The position numbers and the translations under genes are program-made. 64,000 nucleotides of DNA from Bacteroidales bacterium (lineage in GTDB: Bacteria > Bacteroidota > Bacteroidia > Bacteroidales > FEN-979), in contig OY759717.1 of NCBI GenBank assembly GCA_963662525.1, forward strand, positions 915,436 to 979,435, written 5' to 3'. Below are positions 14,420-31,577 of this stretch, piece after piece. Every line of letters starts with the position of its first letter. The stretch's first letter is position 1. The notes under the pieces are model-generated. The model made no database searches, was not told the origin of the DNA, and saw nothing but the letters and a program-made list of their open reading frames with translations.

Positions 14420-14460
14420 ATGAACAAATGTTCATTATGAACAAATGTTCATTATCTTTG
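14420..14460. promoter_or_regulatory. Tandem operators ATGAACAAATGTTCATT x2 plus -7 box, in the divergent DUF134 / nifX-like intergenic region
   Basis: TGAAC-AAAT-GTTCA occurs at 14421-14434 and at 14438-14451 as an exact 17-nt direct repeat. TATCTTTG (TAnnTTTG) lies at 14453-14460. A minus-strand box (CAAAAGTA) lies at 14402-14409. Confidence 0.75.
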
Positions 14461-14489
14461 CATAATAATATTTTTCAAATTCATAAAAA

Positions 14490-14810: not shown

Positions 14811-14811
14811 T

Positions 14812-14991: not shown

Positions 14992-15016
14992 GTATTTATT
15001 CAACAATCAAATTATT

Positions 15017-15265: not shown

Positions 15266-15329
15266 TTTACACATCGAGACTGAAGTGTCTCCCTTATTTT
15301 AAATTCTACACTTTTAATATATAATAACG

Positions 15330-15698
15330 ATGATAAAACGTATTGCTATCCCTATGGAAAATGGGGTTTTATGTGCTCATTTTGGCCATTGCCAAACTTT
15401 TGCCATTGTCAATGTTGAAAACGACATCATTACAGATATCAAAGAAGTTGAACCTCCTGAGCATGTTCCGGGATTATATCCACGCTGGATTGCTCAATTT
15501 GGCGTTACGGATGTTATTGCCGGAGGGATGGGACAACAGGCAATCATGTTATTCAACCAACAAAATATCAATGTTTTTGTAGGAGCACCGGTAAAAAAAG
15601 CGGAAGAACTGGTTAGCGATTTCACTGCCAATAAATTGGATCTGAACGCCAATTATTGCAATCATGACCATTCCGGGCATACCCATCACGGGCATTAA
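15330..15698 (+). CDS. NifB/NifX/NafY-domain protein with His-rich tail
   Basis: RIAIPMENGVLCAHFGHCQTFAIVNVEN, VIAGGMGQQA, and C-terminus NHDHSGHTHHGH. Confidence 0.7.
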   Translation: MIKRIAIPMENGVLCAHFGHCQTFAIVNVENDIITDIKEVEPPEHVPGLYPRWIAQFGVTDVIAGGMGQQAIMLFNQQNINVFVGAPVKKAEELVSDFTANKLDLNANYCNHDHSGHTHHGH

Positions 15699-15704
15699 TC
15701 TTTT

Positions 15705-16580: not shown

Positions 16581-17415
16581 AGGAGGCACCGGAAAATCAA
16601 GTATCAGCGCAGCATTGGCAACTTTAAGTGAATGCGTGATGATTGCAGATTGTGATGTGGATGCGGCCAATCTTTACCTGCTGTTTAACCCGACCCATGA
16701 AGAAGAAATAGTTTATATCGGGGGACACAAAGCAAAACTTGATGGCACGAAATGCAACAATTGCGGAATTTGTCTTGAATATTGTCGTTTTGATGCTATT
16801 TCCCGGATCCAGGAAAGAATTACTATTTCGCCGACTGCCTGCGATGGTTGTTTTCTTTGCTCCCGTATTTGTCCGCAAAATGCCATAAACATGATACAGA
16901 ATGATCAAAGCCGTTTATATTCCGGTTCCTTCCGAAATGGAAAAATGGTTTATGGTCGTCTTGCTCCTGGTGAAGAAAATTCCGGGAAACTGGTAAATAT
17001 GGTCCGTGAAAAAGCGAAAAAGATAGCCAAAGAAAATCAGTTGAATACCATAATCCTTGATGGCCCCCCGGGCATCGGATGCCCGGTCATTTCAACCATT
17101 ACTGGCGTTGATCAGGTGATCATCGTGACGGAACCAACAATATCCGGGTTACACGACATGCAAAGAACCTATGCAGTCGTTCAGAAATTTAGCTTGAAAT
17201 CCCGGGTCATTATTAATAAATTCGATTTAAATCATGCGTTGAGCAATACCATCGATTTATGGTGTAAAGAACAGGAAATTCCTGTTATTGGATATCTGCC
17301 ATTTGATAAGCAAGTGGTAGAAGCCATGGTTCAAGGGATGACCATCATAGAATGGGCACCGGAACAGGAAATCAGTAAAATAATTAGACAAATCTGGAGT
17401 TACATACAAAACTAA
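16555..17415 (+). CDS. MinD/ParA-type P-loop ATPase with inserted 4Fe-4S ferredoxin domain (paralogue)
   Basis: EIAVISGKGGTGKSS, CNNCGICLEYC and CDGCFLCSRICP. It overlaps the upstream paralogue by 26 nt. Confidence 0.75.
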   Translation: MEIAVISGKGGTGKSSISAALATLSECVMIADCDVDAANLYLLFNPTHEEEIVYIGGHKAKLDGTKCNNCGICLEYCRFDAISRIQERITISPTACDGCFLCSRICPQNAINMIQNDQSRLYSGSFRNGKMVYGRLAPGEENSGKLVNMVREKAKKIAKENQLNTIILDGPPGIGCPVISTITGVDQVIIVTEPTISGLHDMQRTYAVVQKFSLKSRVIINKFDLNHALSNTIDLWCKEQEIPVIGYLPFDKQVVEAMVQGMTIIEWAPEQEISKIIRQIWSYIQN

Positions 17416-18213
17416 ATGATCATGAGTCAACTTTTTGAAAAAATCCCCATGGAAGGGGTAAAAAACATTATCGTTATTGCCTCCGGCAAAGGGGGTGTAG
17501 GTAAATCTACGGTAGCAGCCAACCTGGCTATCGCCCTGGCCCGGAACGGATTTAAAACAGCCCTGGTGGATGCTGATATTTATGGACCATCTATTCCGAA
17601 AATGTTCGGTATTGAAGATGCCAGGCCGGATGTAAGTGCCATTGGCGACAAAGAAATGATGTACCCCATTGAAAAGTTTGGAGTGAAGATCATGTCGATC
17701 GGGTTCTTTGTAGCACCTCATCAATCCTTGATCTGGAGAGGTCCTATGGCCTCCAATGCCATCATGCAATTATTCGAGAATACCCAATGGGGAGATATCG
17801 ATTATATGATTATCGACTTCCCTCCGGGAACTGGCGATATCCAGCTTACAACGGTTCAAAAACTGAATCTTACCGGTGCCATTATGGTGACCACTCCCCA
17901 GGAAATTGCCGTAAATGATGCCCGTAAAGCTGCTTCTATGTTTCTCAATCCGGATCTGAAAGTGCCGGTTCTGGGCATCATAGAGAACATGTCGTGGTTT
18001 AGCCCGGAAAAGCATCCGGAAGAACAGTATTTCATTTTCGGTCAGGGAGGCGGTCTGAAAATGGCCAAAGAATTCAACACCAAATTACTGGGTCAAATTC
18101 CACTGGTCATGGAAGTCGGTGAAGCTGCCGAACAGGGCAAGAGTGTTTTCAGTCAGCGCAATAACACTGTTGTCAAAGCATTTGAGAAAATCGCCGAAGC
18201 TATTATTTCTTAA
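17416..18213 (+). CDS. Mrp/NBP35/ApbC-family Fe-S cluster carrier ATPase
   Basis: VIASGKGGVGKSTVAANLA, DADIYGPS, MIIDFPPGTGD. The ATG follows the upstream TAA directly. Confidence 0.8.
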   Translation: MIMSQLFEKIPMEGVKNIIVIASGKGGVGKSTVAANLAIALARNGFKTALVDADIYGPSIPKMFGIEDARPDVSAIGDKEMMYPIEKFGVKIMSIGFFVAPHQSLIWRGPMASNAIMQLFENTQWGDIDYMIIDFPPGTGDIQLTTVQKLNLTGAIMVTTPQEIAVNDARKAASMFLNPDLKVPVLGIIENMSWFSPEKHPEEQYFIFGQGGGLKMAKEFNTKLLGQIPLVMEVGEAAEQGKSVFSQRNNTVVKAFEKIAEAIIS

Positions 18214-19363
18214 CGCTTTTGGCTGACTGGATCAGGTTGGAAAAATAAATAGCAAAGGGACGATAAGCCAGATGCGACCATTTCGAAAAGGGAACTTCGA
18301 TCATCAACATGGGAAACAGGATCATCAGGTGGATGACATAAATGTAATAGGTGGCCATGACCATCCCGTTTACCCTGAAAATATGAACCAGAATTCCGGT
18401 AAGGGCTGTCAGGAAAAGCAGGATCAGAAAAGTCCAGTCAGTATAATGTGAAACTTTCGACTTCTCATTCTCTTTTTTCATACGAAGCACAGAGAAATAA
18501 ACAACCCCAAATACGAGTCCGAAAGTTGTATAATATCCTAAAAGCCTTTGTGGGTGCCACCAGGCATGGATTGTATCGGTCTGGAACCACCCCAGGAAAC
18601 CCACGATCATCGTAAACAGCATAACGTAACTCGACATCAGTAAAAAATGGATGATCCAATAATTCAGTTTCCCACTTTTTACTTTCTCATAAAATGATAT
18701 CTTCTCCGTTTCACACTCAACAAGTCTCCATTGAGAAGCAAAATGAAAAACCAATTTTCCAAATTCAGTGAAATACAATTTATAAGGAATCACTAAATCT
18801 TTCTGGCTTAACACAATCTTCCGGTACATATTAAAAACATTCGACAATAAAAAAAAGGATAATAGCCCTGCCATGATCCAATCTCCCATCTCGATGATCT
18901 GCCATGGGGCAAACGTATTCAACTTCACGCCTCCCTGTTCAGTCAACGCTTCAGTCATGGGACCATGAAAAAAAATAAACAGGAAAAGGATCAGCAGCGA
19001 AAGAAAAGCAATCGCTCCTAACTCCCAGATTTTTGATGTATAGAATTTTTTCGACAAACCCGTCCAATCATAGGATCCTGTCAGGTACCTGCGCATAGCC
19101 ATCATCAGCTGCCCGGGATCGGCATTCCGCGGACAGGTCTCGGTACATTCCCCACAGTAATAGCATAACCAGGGATCAACCGAAGATTCAAGCTCATCTT
19201 TCAGCCCTAAAAGACTATATCTTAATGTTTTCCTTGGGAAAGAATTTTTTTCATCAGAAAGAGAGCAGATCGCCGTACAATTTCCACAGTTATAGCAAGC
19301 ATTAAAATCCCCGGCTCCGTATTTCCGGATCTCATCGGCAAAAAATGGGTCAATCATTGACAT
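18203..19363 (-). CDS. QmoC-like fusion of an HdrC-type 2x[4Fe-4S] domain with an HdrE/NarI-like membrane domain
   Basis: N-terminal CYNCGNCTAICS and CYYCGECTETCP, followed by about 6 TM helices containing conserved His. Confidence 0.65.
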   Translation of the reverse strand: MSMIDPFFADEIRKYGAGDFNACYNCGNCTAICSLSDEKNSFPRKTLRYSLLGLKDELESSVDPWLCYYCGECTETCPRNADPGQLMMAMRRYLTGSYDWTGLSKKFYTSKIWELGAIAFLSLLILFLFIFFHGPMTEALTEQGGVKLNTFAPWQIIEMGDWIMAGLLSFFLLSNVFNMYRKIVLSQKDLVIPYKLYFTEFGKLVFHFASQWRLVECETEKISFYEKVKSGKLNYWIIHFLLMSSYVMLFTMIVGFLGWFQTDTIHAWWHPQRLLGYYTTFGLVFGVVYFSVLRMKKENEKSKVSHYTDWTFLILLFLTALTGILVHIFRVNGMVMATYYIYVIHLMILFPMLMIEVPFSKWSHLAYRPFAIYFSNLIQSAKSVKK

Positions 19364-19369
19364 CAGGAT

Positions 19370-21382
19370 TTATTTTTTGAGTTGATAGCGATAATACTCG
19401 TCATTATCATCCATTCCGGCAGGTTCAAGTAGGAAATATTTGTTCATGGTCATCATATGCCAGGTCACCAGTTCTGCCGGAATTGAAATTGCTTCTGCAA
19501 CCTGGCGTATCGTCCTGGGCTCATTATCTTTTAAGGTATCTATGATAGAACGCCATATAGATGGAAAGTCTTTCATTCCATGCCCTGATTCCATCTCTGA
19601 TTCTGTACCGTTTTCACCTTTACTCTTCAGATCGACCGCTTTCATAAATCCATCAATCATGCCTTCAATTTCATCATTGGTAAACTGAGCAAGATCGATG
19701 GCATCTATCGGACAAACGGGGGTACACATTCCACAACCCTTGCAAACGGCTTCATTGACCGAAGCCACAACTTTGCCATTGGTTTCCATCTGAAAGATGG
19801 CATCAAATTCACATACATCCTGGCATTTCCCGCAATAATTGCAACTTTCGGCATCAATCCTTGCAATGATGGGTTCTAATTCGAGGGTTCCTTTCCGGAT
19901 GATTGCGTTAATTTTGGCTGCTGCTGATAAGGAAGACTGAACTGACTCTGAGATGTTCTTCGGTCCCTGGCATGATCCTCCCAGGAAAATGCCATTGATG
20001 ACTGTCTCAACAGGCCGGAGCTTAGGATGAATCTCATTAAAGAATCTATCGTTGCCCATGGGAATTTTTAATTTTCCGGCCACATCAGAGCTATCAGATC
20101 TGGGAATCATACCATTAACCAGAATAAGCAGATCTACCAGGATATCCATTTCCTTCTTTTCGGTCAGGTAATCCCTGATCTTTATCCGCACACCTCCTTG
20201 TTCTGCTGTCGCCTGGGGAGGATCTTTCTCCTGGTACATCAGGTAAATATCGCCAAGCCTGGATGATTTTTCAAAGAGGATTTCCTGCTTGCCATAAGTC
20301 CTGATATCACGATACAGATGAAATGCTTTGATTCCGTTGAATTTTTCATGCATGCTGATGGAAGAATGGATGGCAGCAGTACAGCAAACCCTGGAGCAGT
20401 ATTTATTTTCACCCTTGGTCTGACGCATTCCTACACAATAAATATAGGCAACAGAACGAACGACTTTTCCATCAATTTTCAAGTTTCCATGAGAAGATTT
20501 GACCAACTTGTCAAAATCATTGATAGTAAGTATACTGGGGCTGGTTCCAAAGCCATATTCTTTTTCCAATGGCTGATAGGATTCATATCCGGTGGTCACC
20601 AGAATAGCACCTGCAGTAAGATTTAATACTTCTTCCTTCACGCCCTTTACATTTACATCTATCTTGAAATTTCCCAGGCTGCCACTCACTTTTACTACCT
20701 GAGCTGAAGTGAACAAGGTAATATTGGCTTGTTTACGTATTGTTTCGAGAAGGGTATCGATCAATTTCTGTCCTTCTTCATTGATCGGGAATAATTGACC
20801 TTTTCCCGCAAGACTTCCTCCAACCTGGTCTTCTTTCTCTATCAGGTAAACCTGATTTCCCATCCTGCCAAGATCGATGGCTGCACGCAAGCCGGCAACT
20901 CCTGCCCCTATGATAAGCACAGTTTTATGAGCAGTGATTTTAATATTTTCGAGTGCCTCTGAATGAGCCACTCGTCTGATTCCCGCCCTGATCAGCCCGG
21001 CTGCCTTATAAGATGCCTGATCCGGATGATCGGAGTGCGCCCATGAACATTGTTCTCGAACATTTACCTGAACATAGTTGTACGGATTTAATCCGGCCCG
21101 TTCAGTCACTCCCCTGAAAGTATGAAGGTGAAGTTTAGGAGAACAGGATGCTACCACGATTCCGTCAAGTTTCTGCGCCTGTATATCCTTCACCATTTCC
21201 TTCTGGTTGGAGTCTGCACAAGCGAACATGACGTTCTTGGAAACGACCACACCTTCTTCATCTCCGGCTATATCACGCAGTTGCTCAACATCCACATAAT
21301 CGGAAATATTTCCGCCACAGTGGCAGATATAGACCCCTATCCTTTGTTTTTTGGTTTTATCTTCCATAATCTGTTGGTTCAT
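19370..21382 (-). CDS. hdrA: HdrA-type heterodisulfide reductase flavoprotein subunit
   Basis: N-terminal domain RIGVYICHCGGNISDYVDV...VVASCSPKLH...REQCSWAH, FAD site VLIIGAGVAGLRAA, YIYCVGMRQ...YCSRVCC, and C-terminal CNYCGKCQDVC / CKGCGMCTPVCP. There is an extra ~100-aa tail. Confidence 0.75.
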   Translation of the reverse strand: MNQQIMEDKTKKQRIGVYICHCGGNISDYVDVEQLRDIAGDEEGVVVSKNVMFACADSNQKEMVKDIQAQKLDGIVVASCSPKLHLHTFRGVTERAGLNPYNYVQVNVREQCSWAHSDHPDQASYKAAGLIRAGIRRVAHSEALENIKITAHKTVLIIGAGVAGLRAAIDLGRMGNQVYLIEKEDQVGGSLAGKGQLFPINEEGQKLIDTLLETIRKQANITLFTSAQVVKVSGSLGNFKIDVNVKGVKEEVLNLTAGAILVTTGYESYQPLEKEYGFGTSPSILTINDFDKLVKSSHGNLKIDGKVVRSVAYIYCVGMRQTKGENKYCSRVCCTAAIHSSISMHEKFNGIKAFHLYRDIRTYGKQEILFEKSSRLGDIYLMYQEKDPPQATAEQGGVRIKIRDYLTEKKEMDILVDLLILVNGMIPRSDSSDVAGKLKIPMGNDRFFNEIHPKLRPVETVINGIFLGGSCQGPKNISESVQSSLSAAAKINAIIRKGTLELEPIIARIDAESCNYCGKCQDVCEFDAIFQMETNGKVVASVNEAVCKGCGMCTPVCPIDAIDLAQFTNDEIEGMIDGFMKAVDLKSKGENGTESEMESGHGMKDFPSIWRSIIDTLKDNEPRTIRQVAEAISIPAELVTWHMMTMNKYFLLEPAGMDDNDEYYRYQLKK

Positions 21383-21388
21383 TTCTCC

Positions 21389-24142
21389 TTACACCCCATT
21401 CCCACTTAAATAAGCTGCTACTTCAGATGCTGCTGCTCCCGCAGATAAAATGGAATCAGGAATATCCATGGGAGCGGCTGCCGTGCCTGCAACAAATACA
21501 CCTTTCATGCTGGTCCTGCTTGGATTTAGCATCAATTCCGGTTGTTTGATATAGCGGAATTCATCTAAAAGCGGCGACTCGCTTTTAAAGGAACGCATCA
21601 CACCATTATCAGGTAAAACCCCCACAGAAAGAACCACCAGGTCATGGGTGAATTCTTTCACTTTACCGGTTTCAATATTTTCCACTCGAAGTGCCAGATC
21701 TCCGCTGTGATTCTCCTTCTCGTTGATGCTGGAGACTTTTCCCTTAATAAAGTTAATCCCCATGGATTTCGACTGCTGATAAAATTCCTCATATCCTTTA
21801 CCGAAGGCACGGATATCAATATAATAGATGGAGATATCAGCCATGGGTAGCGCCCCCATCAGTAATTGTGCCTGTTTGATCGAGTACATGCAGCATATCT
21901 GTGAGCAGATGGGATTGTTAACCGCGGCTAGGTTGCAGCTTCGGAAATTCTCGAGACTACTGTCACGCGATCCGGTACATAAAATATAGGCAATATTCCC
22001 GGGTGCCTTGCCATCGCCGGGACGCAGAACATTATTATAAGGACGCGTAGGAGCAATGATCCTGTCCATCTGCAGGGAATCAATTACATTGGCAAATCTT
22101 ATAGAATTATATTGTGGCTTATGTTCAGGTTTGAAAAGCTGGAATCCTGATGCAATAATTACAGCGCCCACATGAGCTTTGACTTTTTCTGTTTTCTGTG
22201 AGAAATCTATAGCAAAAGCTGGACAGGCGGAAATACATTGATGACACTCCCGGCAATTGCTGCAATCAAGGCAGCGTAACGTACTCTGGTGAACTTCTTC
22301 CTCTGTGAAAGTCAACTCTACTTCTTCGAAATCCTGGATCCTTTCTGCAACAGGCCTGACTTTGTCACTCAAAGCTGGCTGATGTAAAATACCGGGCCTG
22401 GATAAAATAGTATTTTTATCGATTGCCGGAAGCTTATCTCCGAATTCATAATTACCCAGGTCAAGTCCCTGCAAATATTTATCTATATAATACGCTGCTC
22501 TTTTACCCTGACCTGCTGCTTCTATGATCGTACTTGAACCGCTAACCGAATCACCACCGGCAAAAAGCCAGGAAAAGGAACATTGCATCGTATTGGAATC
22601 GACTTTTATCCGGCCATCTTTTTCCAGATCCAATTCCTTTTTGAATGGAGAAGTGGTTGGGTATAAACCGATAGCCTCAATCACCAGATCAACATCTTCG
22701 GTATATTCCGAACCTTTAACTTCCACCGGTTTTTTCCTGCCACTGGCATCCGGTTCACCTAATTTCATCTTGATCATTACTGCCTGGCTGATCTTTCCAT
22801 CTGTTCCGGAAAAACTTATTGGATTTCTAAGCAGCTGAAAAACAACACCTTCATCTTCTGCTTCCCTGATCTCTTCTTTCCATGCCGGCATCTCTTCCCG
22901 GCTTCTGCGATAAATAATGGATACTTTTACAGTCCCCAGTCTCATGGCAGTACGGGCCGAATCCATGGCAGTATTCCCACCGCCAATAACCATTACTTTC
23001 TTTCCCTTCAGATTGATTTTTGTACCGATTTTTGAATCTCTCAGGAAATCAAGACAAGAAACTACCCCCTTCATTTCGCTTCCGGGGATATTCAGCTTGC
23101 TGGTCTGATGCGTTCCGACTGCAATAAAAATCGCATCAAAACCTGATTCTTTTAATTCCTTTAAATGTTCAACCGGGTGATTGCATGCGATTTCAACACC
23201 AAGAGCAGTAATATTTTCAATATCCCGATCGACCACGGTGTTAGGCAGACGATATTCAGGGAGGGTCAGCTTCAACATTCCTCCAGCTTCCGGAGCGGCT
23301 TCATAAATTTTTACCTGGTGGCCGTTCAGCGCGAGATGATATGCTGCAGTAAGTCCTGCCGGACCAGAACCTACAATAGCAATTTTTTTTTCGCTTGTTT
23401 TTTCAATGCTTTTTCTAGATGCTGCCGGATATTTAGTATAATAATTTTCTGTAAAAAATCTTTTTATCCTGCGGATATCCACAGGAGCTTCAAGGCTTGC
23501 CCGTGTACATTCTCCCTGGCAGGGAGCATAACACGCACGGCCAAGGCTGCCGGGTATCGGAATATCCTCCATATGAAGGTGAAAAGCTTCTTCATATTGG
23601 CCGTTTCTAACGAGAGAAATATATCCATACGGTTTAACGCCACCGGGACAGGCAGCAATGCAGGGGGCAGAAGTATCCTGCCGATCAATGAATGCAATGC
23701 GGGGACTCGCGAGACTGAATGGGATATAAGCCACTTTCCGGCCTGCCAGGTGATGATTGTATTCATCAGAGCGAACTTCAGGACAGGCCAATTCACACTC
23801 CTGACAACCCGTGCATGACTCTGGTTTGACGTATCTGGGATGTTTTGTAATTTCCAAATGAAAGCCTTTGTCATTTCTGGTAATGTTATCCAGGTCACTA
23901 CCCATCATCAGGGTAATATTGGAATGTCTGGCTGTTTCAGACATTTTCGGAGTCGTGATACAGGCGGCACAGTCCAGTGTAGGAAAAACCTTGCTTAATT
24001 GTATCATCTTACCTCCTATCGACAGGTCTTTCTCTACCAATAAAACCTGGTAGTCCATATTGGCCAGCGTTAATGCGGCCTCCTGGCCGGCAATACCACC
24101 ACCGATCACCAGTACATCAAATTTTTTTTCCTGATTGTTCAT
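21389..24142 (-). CDS. HdrL-like large HdrA homologue with inserted GltD/NfnB-type NAD(P)H module
   Basis: HdrA N-terminus FDVLVIGGGIAGQEAA and core YILCTGSRD...ICSQICCMY are split by a GltD-like block (CIAACPGG..., KIAIVGSGPAGLTAAYHL, VMVIGGGNTAMDSARTA, YRRSREEMPAWKEE). Confidence 0.7.
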   Translation of the reverse strand: MNNQEKKFDVLVIGGGIAGQEAALTLANMDYQVLLVEKDLSIGGKMIQLSKVFPTLDCAACITTPKMSETARHSNITLMMGSDLDNITRNDKGFHLEITKHPRYVKPESCTGCQECELACPEVRSDEYNHHLAGRKVAYIPFSLASPRIAFIDRQDTSAPCIAACPGGVKPYGYISLVRNGQYEEAFHLHMEDIPIPGSLGRACYAPCQGECTRASLEAPVDIRRIKRFFTENYYTKYPAASRKSIEKTSEKKIAIVGSGPAGLTAAYHLALNGHQVKIYEAAPEAGGMLKLTLPEYRLPNTVVDRDIENITALGVEIACNHPVEHLKELKESGFDAIFIAVGTHQTSKLNIPGSEMKGVVSCLDFLRDSKIGTKINLKGKKVMVIGGGNTAMDSARTAMRLGTVKVSIIYRRSREEMPAWKEEIREAEDEGVVFQLLRNPISFSGTDGKISQAVMIKMKLGEPDASGRKKPVEVKGSEYTEDVDLVIEAIGLYPTTSPFKKELDLEKDGRIKVDSNTMQCSFSWLFAGGDSVSGSSTIIEAAGQGKRAAYYIDKYLQGLDLGNYEFGDKLPAIDKNTILSRPGILHQPALSDKVRPVAERIQDFEEVELTFTEEEVHQSTLRCLDCSNCRECHQCISACPAFAIDFSQKTEKVKAHVGAVIIASGFQLFKPEHKPQYNSIRFANVIDSLQMDRIIAPTRPYNNVLRPGDGKAPGNIAYILCTGSRDSSLENFRSCNLAAVNNPICSQICCMYSIKQAQLLMGALPMADISIYYIDIRAFGKGYEEFYQQSKSMGINFIKGKVSSINEKENHSGDLALRVENIETGKVKEFTHDLVVLSVGVLPDNGVMRSFKSESPLLDEFRYIKQPELMLNPSRTSMKGVFVAGTAAAPMDIPDSILSAGAAASEVAAYLSGNGV

Positions 24143-24537
24143 GAGAGCTCAGCTAAAATTTTACTGAAATTGGCCATGTGACTTGCAAACGATTCTGCAC
24201 AAACGGAACACAGCGCAGCCATTCGGATACGCTTGGGGCTTATCCCCTTCTCCTTCATCTGTTTCTGTGCTTCTGTGATGATATTGTTGGTCAATTCCGG
24301 ACAGCGGGAGCTGAAGGAACATTCATGTCCATCAGCTGCAATAAAAACGCCATCGAAACCCTGCTCAAAAGCACGTAGTATCCACCTTGGTTTTATCCCC
24401 GATGAACAGGGAAGGCTGATTACATATACCGATGGCGAATAATGAATTTTACGCAAACCGGCCTGGTCAATACCCGGATCAGAAATCTTTTCGGTAGAGA
24501 AAACCAGAATCTTAGGTGATCTTTGGGCTAAATTCAT
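24139..24537 (-). CDS. MvhD/FlpD-like [2Fe-2S] electron-transfer subunit
   Basis: KILVFSTEK...ISLPCSSGIKPRWILRAFEQGFDGVFIAADGHECSF. The track start 24582 is a TTG, so ATG 24537 is preferred. The stop overlaps the HdrL start. Confidence 0.7.
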   Translation of the reverse strand: MNLAQRSPKILVFSTEKISDPGIDQAGLRKIHYSPSVYVISLPCSSGIKPRWILRAFEQGFDGVFIAADGHECSFSSRCPELTNNIITEAQKQMKEKGISPKRIRMAALCSVCAESFASHMANFSKILAELS

Positions 24538-24645
24538 GTTTTTAATTATAAATACCTCACCCGGGAAAGTTTTAGCGATCAACCTTCTGCTTCATTTTAT
24601 AAATGAACAAGGAAAAAATAATGGAGGTATCCGGGTGAGGAAAAA

Positions 24646-24897
24646 TTATGCTTTCTTAAGAAACAGTCGGGAGTAACTATCTTCTTCAACAATACCAAGG
24701 TATTCATGACTCATCTTCTGGCACCATCTGGGAATATCTATTTTTGTACCTTCATCAGCAGAATAAATCTCCATAATTTCACCGGATTCTATTTCCCCAA
24801 TGGCTTTCTTGGCAGCCAATAATGGTCCAGGACAGGCAGTACCACGTGCATCAACAATTTTATTCGATTTTAGATTTTTTAATTCTTCTAAGCTCAT
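24646..24897 (-). CDS. tusA: TusA-family sulfurtransferase
   Basis: VDARGTACPGPLLAAKKAI (CPxP motif) in an 83-aa protein. Confidence 0.8.
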   Translation of the reverse strand: MSLEELKNLKSNKIVDARGTACPGPLLAAKKAIGEIESGEIMEIYSADEGTKIDIPRWCQKMSHEYLGIVEEDSYSRLFLKKA

Positions 24898-24914
24898 TAT
24901 GTATTCTCCTTATA

Positions 24915-25460
24915 TTATATGAATAATTGAATTTTGCTTTCCTGTGCATCAGATAAAAATGTTCCCACTCCACAAATTGTCATTTCCGGGTAATCAATCA
25001 TTTCTTCTTTTTTAAATCCCATCAGATTCATCGACATCTCACAGATATTGATTTCAACTCCAAGTTCTGCGGCCGTTTTAAACATCTCTTCCAGAGATGC
25101 AACCTTATGTTTCTTCATGATCCCTTTGATCATTAATGTTCCCATTCCCCACATGTTCATATTTGAAAGTTTAACTTTCCTGCTTCCTTTAGGGAGCATT
25201 ATACCAAACATTTTCTCCATTAAATTCTTCCCTTTCCCGCTCTTCAGGGGATCCCTCAATGAAGATATAGCCCAGAAAGTAAAAAACAATTTAACTTTCA
25301 TATCATAGGCCGCAGCTCCGGTTGCTATTATCAAGGCAGCCAGAATCTTGTCCATGTCGCCTGAGAATACGACCATGGAAACCTGGTCCTTTGTTCCAGC
25401 TTCAAGCTTTCCAATACGCTTTTGAAGATCAGATAATTGTTGTTCAAAATTATCATTCAT
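24915..25460 (-). CDS. DsrE/DsrF-like family protein (COG2210-type, coiled N-terminus)
   Basis: VSMVVFSGDMDKILAALIIATGAAAYDMKVKLFFTFWA...ICEMSMNLMG. It is the first gene of the operon. A putative minus-strand -7 box lies at 25504-25511. Confidence 0.6.
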   Translation of the reverse strand: MNDNFEQQLSDLQKRIGKLEAGTKDQVSMVVFSGDMDKILAALIIATGAAAYDMKVKLFFTFWAISSLRDPLKSGKGKNLMEKMFGIMLPKGSRKVKLSNMNMWGMGTLMIKGIMKKHKVASLEEMFKTAAELGVEINICEMSMNLMGFKKEEMIDYPEMTICGVGTFLSDAQESKIQLFI

Positions 25461-25563
25461 GAAATTGATATTTTATATATTAATATAGTTAGATTTATGC
25501 TTACAAAAATAAAAGTGTTATTGTAATGTATAGACTGTCGTCTTGTGGTGTATTTCGCAAATA

Positions 25564-25583
25564 AATGTGATATTTGTCACATT
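25564..25583. promoter_or_regulatory. Perfect CRP/FNR-type palindrome AATGTGA-TATTTG-TCACATT
   Basis: TGTGA at 25566-25570 and TCACA at 25577-25581. It lies in the divergent region between the dsrE-tusA-hdr operon and the cobO-like operon. Confidence 0.65.
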
Positions 25584-25623
25584 GTTCTCCGGCAAATTTT
25601 TCATAGAAATAAAAAAAACACTA

Positions 25624-25647
25624 ATGAACAAATGTTCATTATTTTTG
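25624..25647 (+). promoter_or_regulatory. Operator ATGAACAAATGTTCAT fused to -7 box TATTTTTG (cobO-like operon promoter)
   Basis: This is the same composite as at 14437-14460 and 29778-29801: TGAAC-N4-GTTCA, then 1 nt, then TAnnTTTG. Confidence 0.7.
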
Positions 25648-25728
25648 TGAAAAATTATTTTTGGTCATTTATATAATTCACCTCAATCCCAGACGGAAAA
25701 TTCTTTATTGTTATTCAAGCCGGATTGA

Positions 25729-26244
25729 ATGAAAGGATATCTGCAAGTATATACCGGAAACGGAAAAGGTAAAACGACTGCTGCTTTAGGACTGGCTCTG
25801 AGAGCAGCAGGGGCCGGTAAAAAGGTATTCTTTGCCCAGTTTGTTAAAGGAATGCCCTATTCGGAAATTGATGCTATCCATAAATTTATCCCTGAAATTC
25901 ATGTACAACAATTCGGACGTGATTGTTTTATCATCAATGAACCCACGGAAGAGGATATTGTTGCCGCACGCCTGGGCTTACAAAAAGTATCGGAGATAAT
26001 GGCCACAGGGAATTATGATTTGATTATCTTAGATGAGGCCTGCATCGCTGTTTTTTATCAATTATTCTCCGTTGAAGAATTAATGGAGGTTCTGAAAGGA
26101 AGACCCGAATTTATGGAAGTCATTGTCACCGGCCGATATGCAAGCCCTGAACTGATAGAAATGGCCGACCTGGTAACCGATATGACAGAAATTAAACATT
26201 ATTATAAGCAAGGGATTATTGCCAGAAAAGGAATTGAGTTCTAA
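25729..26244 (+). CDS. Cob(I)yrinic acid a,c-diamide adenosyltransferase family P-loop protein (CobO/BtuR-like)
   Basis: MKGYLQVYTGNGKGKTTAALGLALRAAGAGKKV...LIILDE. Confidence 0.75.
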   Translation: MKGYLQVYTGNGKGKTTAALGLALRAAGAGKKVFFAQFVKGMPYSEIDAIHKFIPEIHVQQFGRDCFIINEPTEEDIVAARLGLQKVSEIMATGNYDLIILDEACIAVFYQLFSVEELMEVLKGRPEFMEVIVTGRYASPELIEMADLVTDMTEIKHYYKQGIIARKGIEF

Positions 26245-26263
26245 TGATTATTATACCCGTTAA

Positions 26264-27124
26264 ATGTTCATGGATGATTTAACCCCTATCCTGATAAAAG
26301 TCGTTCTGGAAACACTGAAGATCACCCTGATTGTTTTTGTCATGATGGTTCTGGTTGATTTGCTTAATGTTTGGACGAATGGAAATATTACCAGGTTTCT
26401 TCAAAAAGGAAGCCGGTTTAAGCAATATGTTTTATCTTCCTCGATTGGAGCGCTGCCTGGTTGTTTCGGAGCCTTTACCAATGTTTCTTTATATGTCCAT
26501 GGCCTGATCAGTTTAGGAGCCCTCACCGGAGCAATGGCCGCTGCCTCGGGAGATGAAGCCTTTGTTATGCTTTCCCTCTTCCCGAAAACGGCACTAATAC
26601 TGATCCTTATCCTTTTTATAATTGGAATTCTGGTTGGCTGGACCACCGACATGTTGATTAAAAAAACCGGGTTTAAACCTTGTATTGACTGTAAAGACCA
26701 GAAAGTGCACCCCAGGGAAAGAGGATTTGTTCACTATATGAAAGAACATGTCTGGACTCATATTATTAAAAAACACCTATGGAAAACAATGTTATGGACA
26801 TTTGGCGCCATGCTATTTGTCGAATTCGGAATTCAGTTTTTCCATCTGGATTCATTTTCCACGCAATATCCCATGGTACTCCTCTTTATTGCAGCCTTGA
26901 TGGGTCTTATCCCTGAATCGGGACCTCATATGGTATTTATCAGCCTTTATGCCGCCGGATTGGTCCCTTTCCCGGTTTTATTCACCAGTGCCTTTGTTCA
27001 GGATGGACATGGCATGTTGCCCATGCTTTCATATTCTGTTAAAGATTCTCTTTTGATAAAATCTGTGAATCTTGGCATTGGTATATCATTGGGGCTGATC
27101 ATGCTTTTAACAGGTATAAAATGA
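26264..27124 (+). CDS. Polytopic membrane protein, ArsP_2 / putative metal permease-like
   Basis: About 8-10 TM helices. Motifs GALPGCFGAF, IPESGPHMVF and QDGHGMLPML resemble that family as I remember it. Confidence 0.45.
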   Translation: MFMDDLTPILIKVVLETLKITLIVFVMMVLVDLLNVWTNGNITRFLQKGSRFKQYVLSSSIGALPGCFGAFTNVSLYVHGLISLGALTGAMAAASGDEAFVMLSLFPKTALILILILFIIGILVGWTTDMLIKKTGFKPCIDCKDQKVHPRERGFVHYMKEHVWTHIIKKHLWKTMLWTFGAMLFVEFGIQFFHLDSFSTQYPMVLLFIAALMGLIPESGPHMVFISLYAAGLVPFPVLFTSAFVQDGHGMLPMLSYSVKDSLLIKSVNLGIGISLGLIMLLTGIK

Positions 27125-27753
27125 AATCATTATTCGAACAATTATCAACCGACATACGTTTTCAGGAAGGACTGAATGCCTGCATCAGTTGTGGTACCTG
27201 CACGGCCATTTGTCCTGCTGCCCAGTTTTCCGACTACGACCCGAGAACCTTGGTCGAAACGGTCCAAAGAAGAGATGAATCGCTGTTACTGGATTTATTA
27301 AAAGGTGATACCATCTGGCGTTGCGGAGAATGTCTTTCCTGTAAAACCCGCTGTCCCAGGGGAAATACACCCGGGTATCTCATTCAGTCGCTCCGTGCTT
27401 TATCTATAAAAACAGGTGTGTTTGCAGATTCTGAGCAGGGAAGATTTCAACTTCACCTGAAAAGAACATTGGGCGAACATATGCTAAAGTACGGGTATTG
27501 CGTGTATATTGATGAAATTGATACTGATCATTACCCGGAGCAGGGACCGGTATGGGAATGGTACAGGGAGAACAGGATAGCCATCCTTGATCGTTTAGGC
27601 TCCAATTATAATCAGAAGGGTGCTGGCACCCTGAGAAAGATATCTGATCAATCCCTGGCCGATCTTCAGGCTATTTTTATCGAAACAGGTGCAATAAAAC
27701 GTTTTGAACAAATCGAAAGTGCTTGCCGGAAAGGAGTTTCAGATGAAAAATAA
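27121..27753 (+). CDS. hdrC: HdrC-like heterodisulfide reductase Fe-S subunit
   Basis: CISCGTCTAICP and CGECLSCKTRCP. The ATGA overlaps the upstream stop. Confidence 0.7.
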   Translation: MKSLFEQLSTDIRFQEGLNACISCGTCTAICPAAQFSDYDPRTLVETVQRRDESLLLDLLKGDTIWRCGECLSCKTRCPRGNTPGYLIQSLRALSIKTGVFADSEQGRFQLHLKRTLGEHMLKYGYCVYIDEIDTDHYPEQGPVWEWYRENRIAILDRLGSNYNQKGAGTLRKISDQSLADLQAIFIETGAIKRFEQIESACRKGVSDEK

Positions 27754-28807
27754 AAATCAGCAATGGCTGAACTATCAAAAAGAAATTGCCGACGATCATT
27801 ATTATTTCGCACGCTCCTGCATCCGGCAAAACTTTTTTCCCGCTTCTGAGACCATTTTTCTGAAAATCCTGCGCGAAGAACTAGGGAAGGATATTTTCGA
27901 CGACCCGGAACAAACCACTTGCACCGGTATTGCCTATCATTCAGGGATCCTCCCCTTTGAAACAACCATGACGGTAGTTGCCCGGCAATTTGCCCTGATG
28001 ACCGAAGCCGGATATGAGAATTTCGTTTGCTCCTGTGTCACCTCCTTCGGCATTTATACAGAAGTACTGGAAACCTGGAGAAACTTTCCAGAGGAGGAAA
28101 AAAAAACACGGGATGCACTGTTCAAGGCCACCGGGAAAACCTTCAAAATTCCAGCCAACCTTGTGCATACCAGCGATATCATCTATAAATTCAGAAATGA
28201 AATAGCTGAGAAAGCAAGGCTTACATTGAAAAACCATCTCACGGGAGATGCTTTGAAAATTGTAGACCATATCGGATGTCATTATGCTAAAATTTTTCCC
28301 TCGAAAGGGATCGGAGGAGCCGAATATCCGTATGTCCTTGCCGGCCTGATCGACAGCTGGGGCGGTCAGCAGGTTGATTACCCTGAACGCAGGCACTGCT
28401 GTGGATTTGGGTTCAGGCAATACCTGATTAAAGAAAACAGGGGGTATTCATTGTCAAATTCCAGAAAAAAATTTGAATCCATGCAGCCTTACCATCCGGA
28501 TCTGATCATTGCCAATTGCCCGGGCTGTACATTTTTCCTCGATCGCTGGCAATATGTCATCAGTGAAACTGAATGTAAAACATACGACACAGAAGGATAC
28601 GGATTTCCGGTGTTGACCTATGAAGAACTCGCGGGATTGGTTCTTGGATATAATCCATGGGATCTGGGATTGCAGCTTCACCAGGTGGATGTTGAACCAC
28701 TTTTACGCAAACTTGGAGTAAATTATTCACCTGCCGGTAAATACCTGGGAAAAAACGGAGTAAATTTGGGGCAACCTGAAAAACCGGGACGACTCAAAAC
28801 CGGATGA
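27743..28807 (+). CDS. hdrB: HdrB-like subunit (CCG domains)
   Basis: CCG-type cysteines (TCTGIAYH, CSCVTSFG, RRHCCGFGF, NCPGCTFF). The track start 27704 is a TTG; ATG 27743 overlaps the hdrC stop. Confidence 0.65.
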   Translation: MKNKNQQWLNYQKEIADDHYYFARSCIRQNFFPASETIFLKILREELGKDIFDDPEQTTCTGIAYHSGILPFETTMTVVARQFALMTEAGYENFVCSCVTSFGIYTEVLETWRNFPEEEKKTRDALFKATGKTFKIPANLVHTSDIIYKFRNEIAEKARLTLKNHLTGDALKIVDHIGCHYAKIFPSKGIGGAEYPYVLAGLIDSWGGQQVDYPERRHCCGFGFRQYLIKENRGYSLSNSRKKFESMQPYHPDLIIANCPGCTFFLDRWQYVISETECKTYDTEGYGFPVLTYEELAGLVLGYNPWDLGLQLHQVDVEPLLRKLGVNYSPAGKYLGKNGVNLGQPEKPGRLKTG

Positions 28808-28822
28808 ACAAACAAGGCCAGA

Positions 28823-29746
28823 ATGAATGATCATTCACCTCATAATAACCCTTCGGGTCGGTTAATCATAAGCATTTTACTCAATGGTTTGATTACCATT
28901 GCAGAGATTGCTGGTGGTATTTTTTCCAACAGCCTGGCATTGATTTCCGATGCCATCCATAACCTGAGTGATACCATGGCACTGATCCTTGCCTGGACAG
29001 CCAATAAAGTCGGCAGAAGGAAACCGGACACCAGACGTACCTTCGGATATAAACGCTTTGAAATCCTTTCCGCTTTTATAAATGCCTCTGTATTAACTGC
29101 GATTTCCATCTACCTTATCTATGAAGCCGTCTTGAGGGTTCTTCACCCTGAACCGGTCAAATCGGGAATCATGTTTATTATAGCCCTGGCAGGTTTATTG
29201 GCCAACCTGATTTCCATGTTATTCCTGCGCAGGGATTCCAAACACAGCCTGAATGTCAAAGCCGCTTACCTTCATTTATTGGGTGACACCCTTTCATCTA
29301 TTGCCGTCATAGCAGGCGCTGCCCTGATTTATTTCACCCAAATCCTTTGGATAGATCCTGTCATGACCCTTATCATCAGCATAGTTATCATCATTCAAGC
29401 CTATAAAATTCTTCGTGAGTCAATTGATATCCTCATGCAGAGCACCCCATCCAGACTAAATCTTGACGAAATCAGGGAAGTTATTGAAAAACACCCCCTG
29501 GTCAGGAATTTACATCATGTTCACTGCTGGCAATTACAGGACCAAGACGTCCTTTTTGAAGCCCATATTGAAGTAGAAAAAGACATGAAGGTGAGCGAAT
29601 CCAACATCCTGATGGAAGAAATCCGGCATCTCCTGGCCAAGCATTTCCAGATTTCCCATACCACACTACAAGCAGAGTATGATTGCTGTGAAGATACTGA
29701 GATGATAAAACTGAAAGTTGACCGGAAAATTCAGCGCCACATCTAA
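28823..29746 (+). CDS. Cation diffusion facilitator (CzcD/ZitB-type) metal efflux transporter
   Basis: SLALISDAIHNLSD and LHLLGDTLSS motifs, 6 TM helices and a cytoplasmic C-terminal domain. Confidence 0.8.
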   Translation: MNDHSPHNNPSGRLIISILLNGLITIAEIAGGIFSNSLALISDAIHNLSDTMALILAWTANKVGRRKPDTRRTFGYKRFEILSAFINASVLTAISIYLIYEAVLRVLHPEPVKSGIMFIIALAGLLANLISMLFLRRDSKHSLNVKAAYLHLLGDTLSSIAVIAGAALIYFTQILWIDPVMTLIISIVIIIQAYKILRESIDILMQSTPSRLNLDEIREVIEKHPLVRNLHHVHCWQLQDQDVLFEAHIEVEKDMKVSESNILMEEIRHLLAKHFQISHTTLQAEYDCCEDTEMIKLKVDRKIQRHI

Positions 29747-29777
29747 AAAATCCTAAATAGAAAATAACACTTGTATT

Positions 29778-29801
29778 ATGAACTTTTGTTCATTATTTTT
29801 G
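29778..29801 (+). promoter_or_regulatory. Operator ATGAACTTTTGTTCAT fused to -7 box TATTTTTG (peroxiredoxin promoter)
   Basis: TGAAC at 29779-29783, GTTCA at 29788-29792 and TATTTTTG at 29794-29801, 38 nt before the ATG. Confidence 0.7.
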
Positions 29802-29838
29802 TTAATTCATATTTATCCCACTAACTAAAAACAAGAAA

Positions 29839-30537
29839 ATGGAAACAAATCAAGTCATTGCAATGCCAAGAATAGGCGATTCAGCGCCGGCCTTCAGCGC
29901 TGTGACTACACAAGGCAATATCAATTTTCCAGCCGACTATCAGGGACAATGGGTCATCCTGTTCAGCCATCCTGCCGACTTTACTCCGGTCTGCACCTCA
30001 GAATTCATGACCTTCGCATCCATGCAGGAAGAGTTTAAATCACTTAATTGCATGCTCGTCGGTTTGTCGGTTGACGGACTTTACAGCCATATTGCGTGGC
30101 TCCGCACCATCAAGGAGAAGATTGAATATAAAGGCATGAAAAATGTTGAGGTGAACTTCCCGCTGATCGAGGACATCACCATGGAAGTGGCTAAGAAATA
30201 TGGCATGATACAGCCGGGAGAAAGCAATACAAAAGCGGTTAGGGCAGTATTCTTTATCGATCCGAAAGGAATAATCAGGGCCATTATTTATTACCCCCTC
30301 TCAATGGGAAGAAATTTCGATGAACTGAAACGTGCATTAATTGCCATGCAAACTGCCGATAAATTCCAGGTAGCTACCCCTGCTGACTGGCGTCCCGGAG
30401 ATGATGTTATCGTTCCTACCGCAGGATCATGTGGCACCGCGAAAGACCGCATGGAATCAAAAGACCCTGATGTAACCTGTTACGACTGGTTTTTCTGCAC
30501 TAAAAAATTGAGTAGGGAGAAGGTCAACGAAAAGTAG
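29839..30537 (+). CDS. 1-Cys/Prx6-type peroxiredoxin
   Basis: VILFSHPADFTPVCTSEF. Confidence 0.85.
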   Translation: METNQVIAMPRIGDSAPAFSAVTTQGNINFPADYQGQWVILFSHPADFTPVCTSEFMTFASMQEEFKSLNCMLVGLSVDGLYSHIAWLRTIKEKIEYKGMKNVEVNFPLIEDITMEVAKKYGMIQPGESNTKAVRAVFFIDPKGIIRAIIYYPLSMGRNFDELKRALIAMQTADKFQVATPADWRPGDDVIVPTAGSCGTAKDRMESKDPDVTCYDWFFCTKKLSREKVNEK

Positions 30538-30544
30538 AAGTGGT

Positions 30545-30760
30545 TTAACCTTGCAGTTTTACCTTATTATGTGACCAAAAATACAGGGAGAGAAAAATGG
30601 AAGTCGTGACCACCGCCAATGCAATGTAACAAAACATGCCACAATAAAACCCTTCCTTAGCGCCACAAACATTTGCAAAGCATCCAATAACTGCTATGAC
30701 AATATAATCTACAAATAAAATAAGAGATAAAACACTGAACAAAACAAGCAGCTTTTTCAT
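30545..30760 (-). CDS. Small Cys-rich membrane protein, hypothetical
   Basis: MKKLLVLFSVLSLILF... has two TM helices and 5 Cys. The start is uncertain; an ATG at 30817 is also possible. Confidence 0.35.
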   Translation of the reverse strand: MKKLLVLFSVLSLILFVDYIVIAVIGCFANVCGAKEGFYCGMFCYIALAVVTTSIFLSLYFWSHNKVKLQG

Positions 30761-30837
30761 ATATAGAATTTCACATAAAAGTACTGCATCCATATGACCA
30801 AGGATGATTATGTGCATTGAATCATCCCAATTTCAAA

Positions 30838-30853
30838 TGTGAGATAGATCACA
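30838..30853. promoter_or_regulatory. Perfect CRP-type site TGTGA-GATAGA-TCACA, 17 nt upstream of the crp/fnr-family gene
   Basis: Read directly from the sequence. It is the second copy of the TGTGA-N6-TCACA core seen at 25566-25581. Confidence 0.65.
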
Positions 30854-30869
30854 AAAATTTTGACTAGCG

Positions 30870-31577
30870 ATGAAAAGCAACGATACCATCCCAGAACCGA
30901 CCTTAAAATGCAGTTGTTGCAGCGAAAAATCCTGCGCATCACTGGTATTAAATAATGAGGAATTAAACGTTCTTAGCAATAATTGCTGTGAAGCCGCATT
31001 TGTCCGCAATGAAACTGTCCTGAAAGAAGGGTCTTTCACTTCCCATATTATTTATTTAAGAACCGGGCTGGTTAAAGAGTCAAAAAAGAATGAAAGAGGA
31101 CAGGAACACATCATGCAGATCATTAAAAGCCATGCTTATCTTGGATTGCCTTCCCTGTTCGGAGACAGGATCAACCAGTATTCCTATACGGCATTAACCA
31201 ATGTTACCGTTTGCTTTATTGATGTGAATGTATATAAACAGATGATCCTGGAGAATGGAAAATTCTCTTATGAGATTCTGGCCACCGTATGCAGGGAAAG
31301 CCTGAATAATTATCACCAACTGGTAAATAAGCAGCAGAAGCAATTAAGCGGAAAAATTGCCGATACCCTACTGTATTTTTCCCGGAATATTTTCGAAAGC
31401 AATCATTACGAACTTCCCCTGAACAGGAATGAAATAGCCGGTCTCATCGGATCCAGCCGGGAAAGTGTGACGAAACAGTTAAACCACTTTGTGGCCGATG
31501 GCCTGATCAGTTTAAAAGGCCGCTCCATTGAACTCCTTGGAATCGATAAACTTGAAAAAATCAGCAAATTCGGATAA
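30870..31577 (+). CDS. Crp/Fnr-family transcriptional regulator with Cys-rich N-terminus
   Basis: N-terminal LKCSCCSEKSC...NNCC, a cNMP-like beta-roll, and C-terminal HTH (RNEIAGLIGSSRESVTKQLNHF). Confidence 0.8.
   Translation: MKSNDTIPEPTLKCSCCSEKSCASLVLNNEELNVLSNNCCEAAFVRNETVLKEGSFTSHIIYLRTGLVKESKKNERGQEHIMQIIKSHAYLGLPSLFGDRINQYSYTALTNVTVCFIDVNVYKQMILENGKFSYEILATVCRESLNNYHQLVNKQQKQLSGKIADTLLYFSRNIFESNHYELPLNRNEIAGLIGSSRESVTKQLNHFVADGLISLKGRSIELLGIDKLEKISKFG

Follow-up and report, generated by a model that had tools for sequence, protein, structure and literature searches.

The 64-kb window analyzed here (positions 915,436 to 979,435 of contig OY759717.1 in the assembly GCA_963662525.1 of a Bacteroidales bacterium) contains a gene for a cysteine-rich Crp/Fnr-family regulator and a dsrE2-tusA-mvhD-hdrL-hdrA-qmoC operon, each preceded by a perfect TGTGA-N6-TCACA palindrome, and it raises the question of whether these palindromes connect the regulator with the operon. 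The data presented below suggest that they probably do, i.e. that an FNR-like regulator of a Bacteroidota subfamily controls the dsrE2-hdr operon, a small divergent gene and its own gene through such sites. Both perfect cores had been reported in a first-pass annotation of the window, and their coordinates were confirmed. Site 1 has the core TGTGATATTTGTCACA (25566-25581), part of the 20-bp palindrome AATGTGATATTTGTCACATT (25564-25583), and it lies within a 268-bp intergenic region shared by the divergent dsrE2 and cobO sides. Site 2, TGTGAGATAGATCACA (30838-30853), is common to the divergent promoters of the regulator gene and of a small minus-strand open reading frame (ORF), and it ends 16 nt ahead of the regulator ATG at 30870, in agreement with the position just before the start codon that had been proposed. 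When the window was compared with 100 dinucleotide-preserving shuffles of its sequence, the two perfect palindromes, both of them intergenic, stood against a shuffle mean of 0.09, and none of the 100 shuffles reached two. A relaxed search allowing up to 2 mismatches returned 27 matches in the window versus 28.9 expected; because there is no excess of weak sites, the signal rests on the two perfect ones and no further targets inside the window are supported.

The significance of the two sites became clear when one genome per species was scanned, which provided 80 loci (1.28 Mb in total) encoding homologs with 46-62% identity to the regulator; they belong to Prolixibacter, Marinifilum, Labilibaculum and many Bacteroidales metagenome-assembled genomes (MAGs). 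These loci harbored 62 perfect palindromes, whereas about 2 were expected from the window shuffle rate, and 58 of the 62 were located in intergenic DNA, which represents 15% of the bases. The concern that equally perfect sites might be scattered at random through coding DNA was therefore not borne out, either in the window or in its relatives. A position weight matrix built from 61 distinct sites of the other genomes (consensus TGTGA-TATATA-TCACA) scored sites 1 and 2 at 26.8 and 20.1 bits, respectively, and the next best match in the window reached 9.0 bits. A site with at most one mismatch was present upstream of dsrE2 in 16 of 16 loci, upstream of the regulator gene in 64 of 80, upstream of the small ORF in 6 of 6, upstream of an SQR-like gene in 7 of 12, and, in 20 of the 24 testable loci, upstream of a NifX-like gene that is the first of an aminotransferase-DsrC-DsrM-DsrK-cysteine desulfurase cluster. 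None of the loci had a site at the internal genes tusA, hdrL, dsrC and csd. Thus, the palindrome accompanies both the regulator gene and the dsrE2 operon across lineages whose regulators are 36-62% identical, and the palindromes are, as judged from this pattern, evolutionarily conserved predicted binding sites.

The sites are also fixed with respect to the promoters. Bacteroidetes promoters carry TAnnTTTG at -7 and TTTG near -33 (PMC7366714), and, over all perfect sites, the distances from the site centre to such a -7 box peaked at a few values: 27 at 68.5-70.5 nt, 12 at 113.5/114.5 nt, 12 at 135.5/136.5 nt, 4 at 47.5 nt and 10 at -6.5 nt, versus 0.07 per single offset in a randomised control. 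The positive peaks are spaced by multiples of 22 bp. In addition, public metagenome contigs were scanned for the bare DNA pattern TGTGA-N6-TCACA-N54-TAnnTTTG, blind to any protein, and 80 loci were returned. Operons of the hdr type headed by a dsrE gene followed the pattern in 38 of the 80, the first downstream gene being an ortholog of DsrE2 (57-85% identical) in 26 and a gene for a 140-aa DsrE-like protein that heads dsrE2-tusA-mvhD-hdrL-hdrA-qmoC in 12; ten of these latter 12 loci contained a gene for a 36-42% identical regulator nearby on the opposite strand. The 27 loci without a downstream ORF look like chance matches. The link between regulator, site and operon postulated in the first-pass annotation is supported, therefore, by the placement at dsrE2 and at the regulator gene, by the lack of sites at internal genes, by the metagenome scan, and by a recognition helix of the expected type in 120 of 120 regulator homologs (see below).

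The target operon (18203-25460, minus strand) comprises dsrE2 (24915-25460; PF13686), tusA (24646-24897), mvhD (MvhD/FlpD; 24139-24582), an hdrL-like gene for a 917-aa HdrA/GltD fusion (21389-24142), an hdrA-like gene (670 aa; 19370-21382) and a qmoC-like gene (386 aa; 18203-19363), separated by gaps of -4 to 63 nt. The identities previously given to these genes and to the Crp/Fnr gene hold by Pfam and NCBIfam, and the gene order is kept in more than 40 loci. Scores with the curated NCBIfam models were below equivalog level both for QmoC (200 bits versus a cut-off of 300) and for HdrA2 (508 and 427 bits versus 1100), and by this measure the Hdr/Qmo-like proteins of the operon are related to the named QmoC, HdrA and HdrL families and fall outside them.

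An exact TAnnTTTG box, TATTTTTG, is located at 25504-25511 on the minus strand, 55 nt from the core of site 1, just as had been estimated, and the transcription start is expected a few nucleotides downstream of it. In 17 of 17 loci such an exact box is found 43-53 nt before the dsrE2 ATG, and in all 17 the centre of the site (25573.5 in the window) is 69.5 nt away from the last G of the box. Some loci have a second site 22 bp nearer, at 47.5 nt from the -7 box, which is perfect in L034, L049, L052 and L057 and degenerate in L035 and L044. The window has a proximal site of the degenerate kind, site 1b (TGTGGTGTATTTCGCA, 25544-25559), which differs from the consensus at two positions, is separated by 22 bp from site 1 and by 47.5 nt from the dsrE2 -7 box, and ranks fifth in the window with 7.6 bits; neither this site nor the divergent context of site 1 had been mentioned in the first-pass annotation. 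If transcription starts a few nucleotides past the box, sites 1 and 1b would be centred at about -74 and -52. Since both sites are upstream of the core promoter, their arrangement is that expected for an activator. A related organization was observed in the intergenic region between the NifX-like and the regulator genes of L034 (9757-9994), L049, L038, L026 and other loci, where one palindrome and three ATCACA half-sites follow each other with a 22-bp period, their offsets to the -7 box of the NifX-like promoter being 113.5, 91.5, 69.5 and 47.5 nt. Such arrays suggest that several dimers bind cooperatively on one face of the helix.

Site 2 shows the same geometry with respect to the small divergent gene (30545-30760, minus strand), which encodes a predicted two-helix membrane protein of 71 aa with DY and FYCGxYC motifs (82 aa if translated from the alternative ATG at 30793, the start chosen by the gene caller elsewhere). 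This protein gave no Pfam or NCBIfam match, and a homology search found, besides the protein itself, a single 'hypothetical protein'. Nevertheless, Prolixibacter, Marinifilum, Labilibaculum and close relatives conserve the gene in divergent orientation to that of the regulator, and within the close subfamily a gene for a membrane protein of about 70 aa is always divergently paired with that of the regulator. Its -7-like box, TACTTTTA (30776-30783, minus strand), has one mismatch to TAnnTTTG and lies 16 nt before the ATG at 30760. Between the centre of site 2 and the last base of the TAnnTTT[G/A] box there are 69.5 or 70.5 nt in 17 of 17 loci, the window (69.5 nt) included, and with this fixed spacing site 2 is placed towards the small gene as site 1 is towards dsrE2, in the geometry of an activator. 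Neither the small gene nor its 69.5-nt geometry was part of the first-pass annotation.

On the regulator side, the centre of site 2 is 24.5 nt before the ATG both in the window and in L081, whose regulator is 79% identical and which has both sites at positions equivalent to those of the window. In 16 loci of Marinifilum, Labilibaculum and Prolixibacter, an exact TAnnTTTG on the regulator strand overlaps the left half-site (offset -6.5 nt), so that a bound dimer would block the promoter of the regulator's own gene. In the window, a tentative and weak -7-like box with one mismatch, AAATTTTG, is located directly after site 2 (30855-30862, plus strand), and, wherever transcription starts, the position of the palindrome places it within the predicted core promoter or the leader of the regulator gene. 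The earlier proposal that the regulator activates the hdr operon and represses itself is consistent with this geometry, i.e. with the 69.5-nt spacing at dsrE2 and the overlap with its own promoter or 5' untranslated region, the direction of both effects being deduced from site position. As a separate observation, all the Labilibaculum loci (L008, L015, L019, L020, L025 and L060) share an asymmetric TGTGA-N6-TTACA element 13.5 nt before the regulator ATG, and in some of them no small ORF of at least 60 aa was seen.

The regulator itself (235 aa; 30870-31577, plus strand) combines the two domains that define the Crp/Fnr superfamily, a cyclic nucleotide-binding-like β-barrel (PF00027, 48.3 bits versus a cut-off of 27.5) and a Crp-type helix-turn-helix (PF13545, 53.1 versus 27; PF00325, 23.9 versus 21). 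An AlphaFold2 model (mean predicted local distance difference test score, pLDDT, of 84) matched CRP, GlxR, holo-FNR of A. fischeri and the P. gingivalis protein 2gau in Foldseek with template modeling (TM) scores of 0.73-0.83, which confirms the fold and does not separate CRP from FNR. A comparison at the level of residues was made with an alignment of 120 regulator homologs plus E. coli FNR and CRP. Cysteines C14, C17, C22 and C115 are kept in 117-120 of the 120 homologs, and were invariant in a count of 58 of 58, and they align with C20, C23, C29 and C122 of FNR, the four ligands of its [4Fe-4S] cluster; a HMMER alignment likewise pairs, at its start, residue 14 of the regulator with residue 29 in the tagged chain of A. 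fischeri FNR. When residues 1-130 were compared with solved structures, FNR (E = 0.95) was outside the five best alignments listed. The FNR-like cysteine cluster described in the first-pass annotation thus stands in part: the strings LKCSCCSEKSC and NNCC are present, and C14, C17 and C22 are conserved and, together with C115, which had been overlooked, occupy the ligand positions of FNR. C39 is maintained only in a distant subfamily, and, since C16, C40 and C141 are not conserved among the 120 homologs, the cysteine strings are only partly informative.

With regard to DNA reading, the recognition helix SRESVTK contains the equivalents of CRP residues R180, E181 and R185, which are R in 120 of 120 homologs, E in 120 of 120, and either R (90 homologs) or K (30). 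The R-E-x3-K/R contact residues predict a TGTGA half-site, and the fear that a different helix might call for another motif proved unfounded. In contrast with this CRP-like helix, none of the five cAMP ligands of CRP (E72, R82, S83, T127 and S128) is kept: the window regulator has L, Q, Y, N and Y at these positions, and most of the 120 homologs have L, H, Y, N and F/Y. Assignment of the regulator to CRP, Fnr, FnrL, FixK, NtcA or YeiL was rejected, every NCBIfam score being far under its cut-off (50.7 versus 266 for CRP, 46.6 versus 228 for Fnr NF008365, and 44.1 versus 300 for FnrL), and the regulator therefore belongs to a subfamily without a name. The wider family is large, with 73 cluster representatives (50% identity) matching at E <= 1e-30; about 83% of its full-length members have the CxxC pair and the equivalent of C115, and the third cysteine shifts. 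Thus, C22 is absent from the 36-42% identical subfamily (L092-L153), where eight of nine members have a cysteine at the position of C39, and the window regulator holds both C22 and C39, which raises the possibility that the fourth ligand position may have switched during evolution of the family. These distant regulators, encoded beside the same motif, retain the RE helix. No competing Crp/Fnr paralog was found within the window, and a full-text literature search returned no description of this regulator family or its regulon.

Taken together, these features make the system similar to FNR in its sensor and to CRP in its DNA reading, and it falls outside both, by its family scores and by its DNA box (for FNR) and its cAMP-ligand positions (for CRP). 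FNR (E. coli; A. fischeri, PDB 5e44) shares the fold of the regulator (TM about 0.81), is subject to autoregulation and works from positions upstream of its target promoters, and its N-terminal cysteine cluster and internal cysteine align with those of the regulator, which likewise has three N-terminal cysteines and one at the end of the β-barrel, with x4 as the spacing before the third. However, the FNR helix is V-E-T-I-S-R and that of the regulator R-E-S-V-T-K, with R in place of V208, and the FNR box TTGAT-N4-ATCAA, read by an E-x2-S-R helix, is not the one found at these sites. The promoters concerned here are, moreover, of the Bacteroidetes -7/-33 type and the targets are sulfur-relay and Hdr-like genes. 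CRP of E. coli shares the TGTGA half-site, the three contact residues and class I-like upstream activator positions, but not the cAMP pocket, and lacks the N-terminal cysteine extension. Fnr of B. subtilis is Fe-S-dependent and recognizes a CRP-type TGTGA-N6-TCACA box, so that a CRP-type box read by a regulator with an FNR-type sensor is already known, but its cluster ligands are C-terminal and it belongs to another phylum, with other promoter types and a nitrate-respiration regulon. CRP-like sites have also been reported for B. subtilis fnr orthologs (PMC1274295).

Another relevant comparison is that with HcpR, a group of Crp/Fnr regulators of nitrosative stress and, in Desulfovibrio, of sulfate-reduction genes (PMC1274295, PMC4534486), whose regulon, predicted by comparative genomics, reaches the sulfur genes apsBA, sat and phsA, with effects on qmoABC (PMC1274295). 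The likeness is that of a Crp/Fnr regulon of anaerobes delineated by comparative genomics and touching sulfur metabolism; in contrast, HcpR regulons centre on hcp, their reported motifs are TTGAC-type, and the P. gingivalis HcpR is a haem protein. No hcp was annotated among the genes examined here, in loci that were not searched systematically for it. The P. gingivalis protein 2gau, from the same phylum, is the solved structure closest to the regulator in sequence, with E = 7e-18 across residues 26-235 and a TM of 0.83, but that alignment begins at residue 26 and so excludes the cysteine-containing N terminus, places Val opposite C115, and involves a helix without the RE pair.

All these results can be accommodated in a model in which the four cysteines of the regulator would probably hold a [4Fe-4S] cluster, by analogy with FNR, and the holo-dimer would bind the palindrome when the cluster is intact, most likely under anoxia. 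At the dsrE2 promoter, one dimer on the perfect site, at about -74 relative to the start, and another on the weaker site 22 bp nearer would activate transcription by contact with RNA polymerase. At site 2, a single dimer would probably sit at activating distance from the promoter of the small gene and, covering the core promoter or short leader of the regulator gene, would probably limit the synthesis of the regulator itself. In relatives, the same regulator would also control the DsrC-DsrMK-cysteine desulfurase cluster and other sulfur and Fe-S genes, and, given the nature of these genes, the output would be a module for cytoplasmic sulfur trafficking and electron transfer. The direction of regulation is taken in this model by analogy with known systems, and the signal may be oxygen, a sulfur species, nitric oxide (NO) or Fe-S status.

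Several points weigh against the model, whose support is drawn entirely from sequence and comparative genomics. The cysteine spacing is C-x2-C-x4-C, versus x5 in FNR, and the 16 N-terminal residues are modeled with a pLDDT below 50; the spacing and the low-confidence N terminus, together with the C22/C39 shift, make the exact ligand set uncertain. Regarding site 2, the promoter of the regulator gene is not clearly identifiable in the window, its sole box having one mismatch. This box would imply a nearly leaderless mRNA, and leaders of less than 10 nt account for only about 3.7% of Bacteroides untranslated regions (PMC7366714), which makes autorepression the weakest step of the model. In the distant subfamily, the site is 60-80 nt before the regulator ATG, and in L080 (an Ichthyobacteriaceae MAG) each strand carries a -7 box 69.5 nt away from the single palindrome, located at 9846. 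These last two arrangements suggest positive autoregulation, with symmetric two-way activation in L080, where the small gene is followed by genes for proteins of 538 and 320 aa.

How far do alternative explanations account for the same observations? That the two palindromes are products of chance, or RNA hairpins without a regulatory role, might be argued from the tendency of AT-rich intergenic DNA to yield short palindromes and from the lack of enrichment of sites with 1-2 mismatches in the window. However, two were found versus 0.09 expected, their positions are fixed to a single nucleotide in dozens of genomes, and the spacer varies without compensatory pairing, and the explanation is effectively refuted by the conservation, the fixed geometry, the offset histogram and the metagenome scan. 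Also rejected was the presence of an RNA element, a cobalamin riboswitch ahead of cobO included, as an Rfam scan of 25300-31000 returned no element up to E = 1. It is very improbable, too, that the palindromes are bound by a Crp-family protein encoded elsewhere in the genome and are unrelated to the cysteine-rich regulator. Bacteroidota do have many Crp/Fnr paralogs, a second one being located 3 kb away in L081 and L082, and the part of this genome that was examined amounts to 64 kb; but the motif tracks the regulator gene in 64 of 80 loci and down to 36% identity, the invariant R-E-x3-K/R helix fits it, and the window encodes no paralog. More weight is due to the view, unlikely as we judge it, that the regulator acts on these sites as in the model but senses by other means: a thiol/disulfide/persulfide switch, or a cluster reporting sulfane sulfur, NO or Fe-S status, in which case the regulon would be induced by its own sulfur substrates. 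All conserved targets are indeed sulfur-trafficking or Fe-S proteins (DsrE2, TusA, DsrC, DsrMK, two class V aminotransferases/cysteine desulfurases, and an SQR-like flavoprotein whose gene precedes DUF1641 and DsrC-like ones), and both the spacing of the cysteines, unlike that of FNR, and the variable third/fourth ligand position would fit a different chemistry. On the other hand, the four invariant cysteines are exactly on FNR ligand positions, including that of the internal C122, whose equivalent is not known to play a role in thiol-switch Crp/Fnr proteins, and a response to anoxia makes sense for target enzymes so rich in Fe-S clusters. The more specific idea that the regulator is the first Crp/Fnr sensor of sulfane sulfur, persulfide or the state of the sulfur relay rather than of oxygen, and the master switch of the module, appears quite improbable. 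If it were true, a widespread anaerobic sulfur-trafficking and respiration module, DsrE/DsrE2 included, would have gone unrecognized in sediment and freshwater Bacteroidota, with the small FYCGxYC membrane protein as a new component.

Two further alternatives concern the polarity of each site. Site 2 might serve mainly to activate the small divergent gene, the regulator gene being constitutive or positively autoregulated instead of self-repressed, although we regard this as rather unlikely. The spacing to the -7 box of the small gene is fixed (69.5/70.5 nt in 17 of 17 loci), whereas that to the regulator ATG ranges between 12.5 and 126.5 nt; in L080 there is a box at 69.5 nt from the site on each strand, and no convincing regulator promoter is visible in the window. 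Against it, the exact box over the left half-site in 16 loci is a classic occlusion geometry, and the window site ends so close to the ATG (16 nt) that any promoter or leader must include it. As for site 1, that it acts both ways and also controls the cluster formed by cobO and genes for an ArsP_2 permease, HdrC-like and HdrB-like proteins, a CDF transporter and a 1-Cys peroxiredoxin (25729-30537, plus strand) seems improbable. The two sides share the 268-bp intergenic region, one plus-strand TAnnTTTG box is at 89.5 nt from the site centre, a distance equal to that in the SQR-like operons of L070 and L073, and L084 has a perfect site before an operon containing cobO and a peroxiredoxin gene. 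Yet the cobO-side boxes, at 73.5 and 89.5 nt, differ from the dominant 69.5 or 47.5 nt, and the cluster is not a conserved neighbor of dsrE2, its sole other carrier, L029, having no site upstream of cobO. The same lack of conservation beside dsrE2 and the different promoter offsets led us to reject the cobO cluster as the primary target of site 1.

For the preferred reading, that of an FNR-like regulator acting through the palindromes, the regulatory principle is a familiar one, namely an Fe-S-type Crp/Fnr regulator, a palindromic box, autoregulation and upstream activation. Its interest lies in that the motif joins, as one co-regulated and widely distributed module, poorly understood sulfur-relay and Hdr/Qmo-like genes of anaerobic Bacteroidota, whose predicted members are DsrE2, TusA, MvhD, HdrL, HdrA, QmoC, DsrC, DsrMK, cysteine desulfurases, the SQR-like enzyme and the small membrane protein. 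It thereby offers a handle for their study, in the form of a single regulator, a box of 16 bp and a prediction of the condition that induces the module, and the spacings of 69.5 and 47.5 nt and the 22-bp-phase arrays provide unusually clean data on activator-promoter geometry for a non-canonical Bacteroidetes sigma factor.

The window also carries the DsrC cluster that belongs to the predicted regulon in relatives (3-4363, plus strand; a class V aminotransferase gene cut by the window edge, followed by genes for DsrC, DsrM-like, DsrK-like and cysteine desulfurase proteins, identified by tblastn and Pfam). Its genes are 62-85% identical to those of L034 by tblastn, and its promoter is beyond the left edge of the window; in 40-46 of the 80 loci, the aminotransferase-DsrC cluster is divergent from the regulator gene. 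The DsrK-like protein of the window has Fer4 and CCG domains, and a thioredoxin gene follows that of the cysteine desulfurase (3-4864 in all). No dsrAB genes were seen among the genes examined. The operon of the SQR-like flavoprotein (409 aa), DUF1641 and a second DsrC-like protein is found in L070 (11335-13860), L073 (10924-13376) and 11 other loci, its site being 89.5 nt from the -7 box in L070 and L073.

Further perfect sites were noticed near genes for a Tat-signal molybdopterin oxidoreductase (748 aa) and a short ORF of 110-112 aa, at 9182 in L023, 8467 in L031 and 10243 in L059. In L031, the site is located upstream of genes for a 249-aa membrane protein and a 182-aa protein, homologs of the window region 6972-7466, that run into the regulator gene. 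The perfect site of L084 (at 3080; regulator 64% identical) precedes an operon of NifX-like, DUF5320, CGGC, CbiA/Fer4 (two copies), CobO, Cys/Met-PLP and peroxiredoxin genes. A similar Fe-S-carrier cluster (DUF134, CbiA/Fer4 twice, and Mrp/NBP35) is present in the window at 13967-18213, with no site detected upstream. Downstream of cobO (26264-28807, plus strand), the ArsP_2-type permease gene is translationally coupled to the HdrC-like and HdrB-like genes, which is an unusual combination. Finally, a MbnP-like gene beside that of a TonB-dependent receptor (10255-13320, minus strand) suggests uptake of a copper or metallophore type, unrelated to the regulator.

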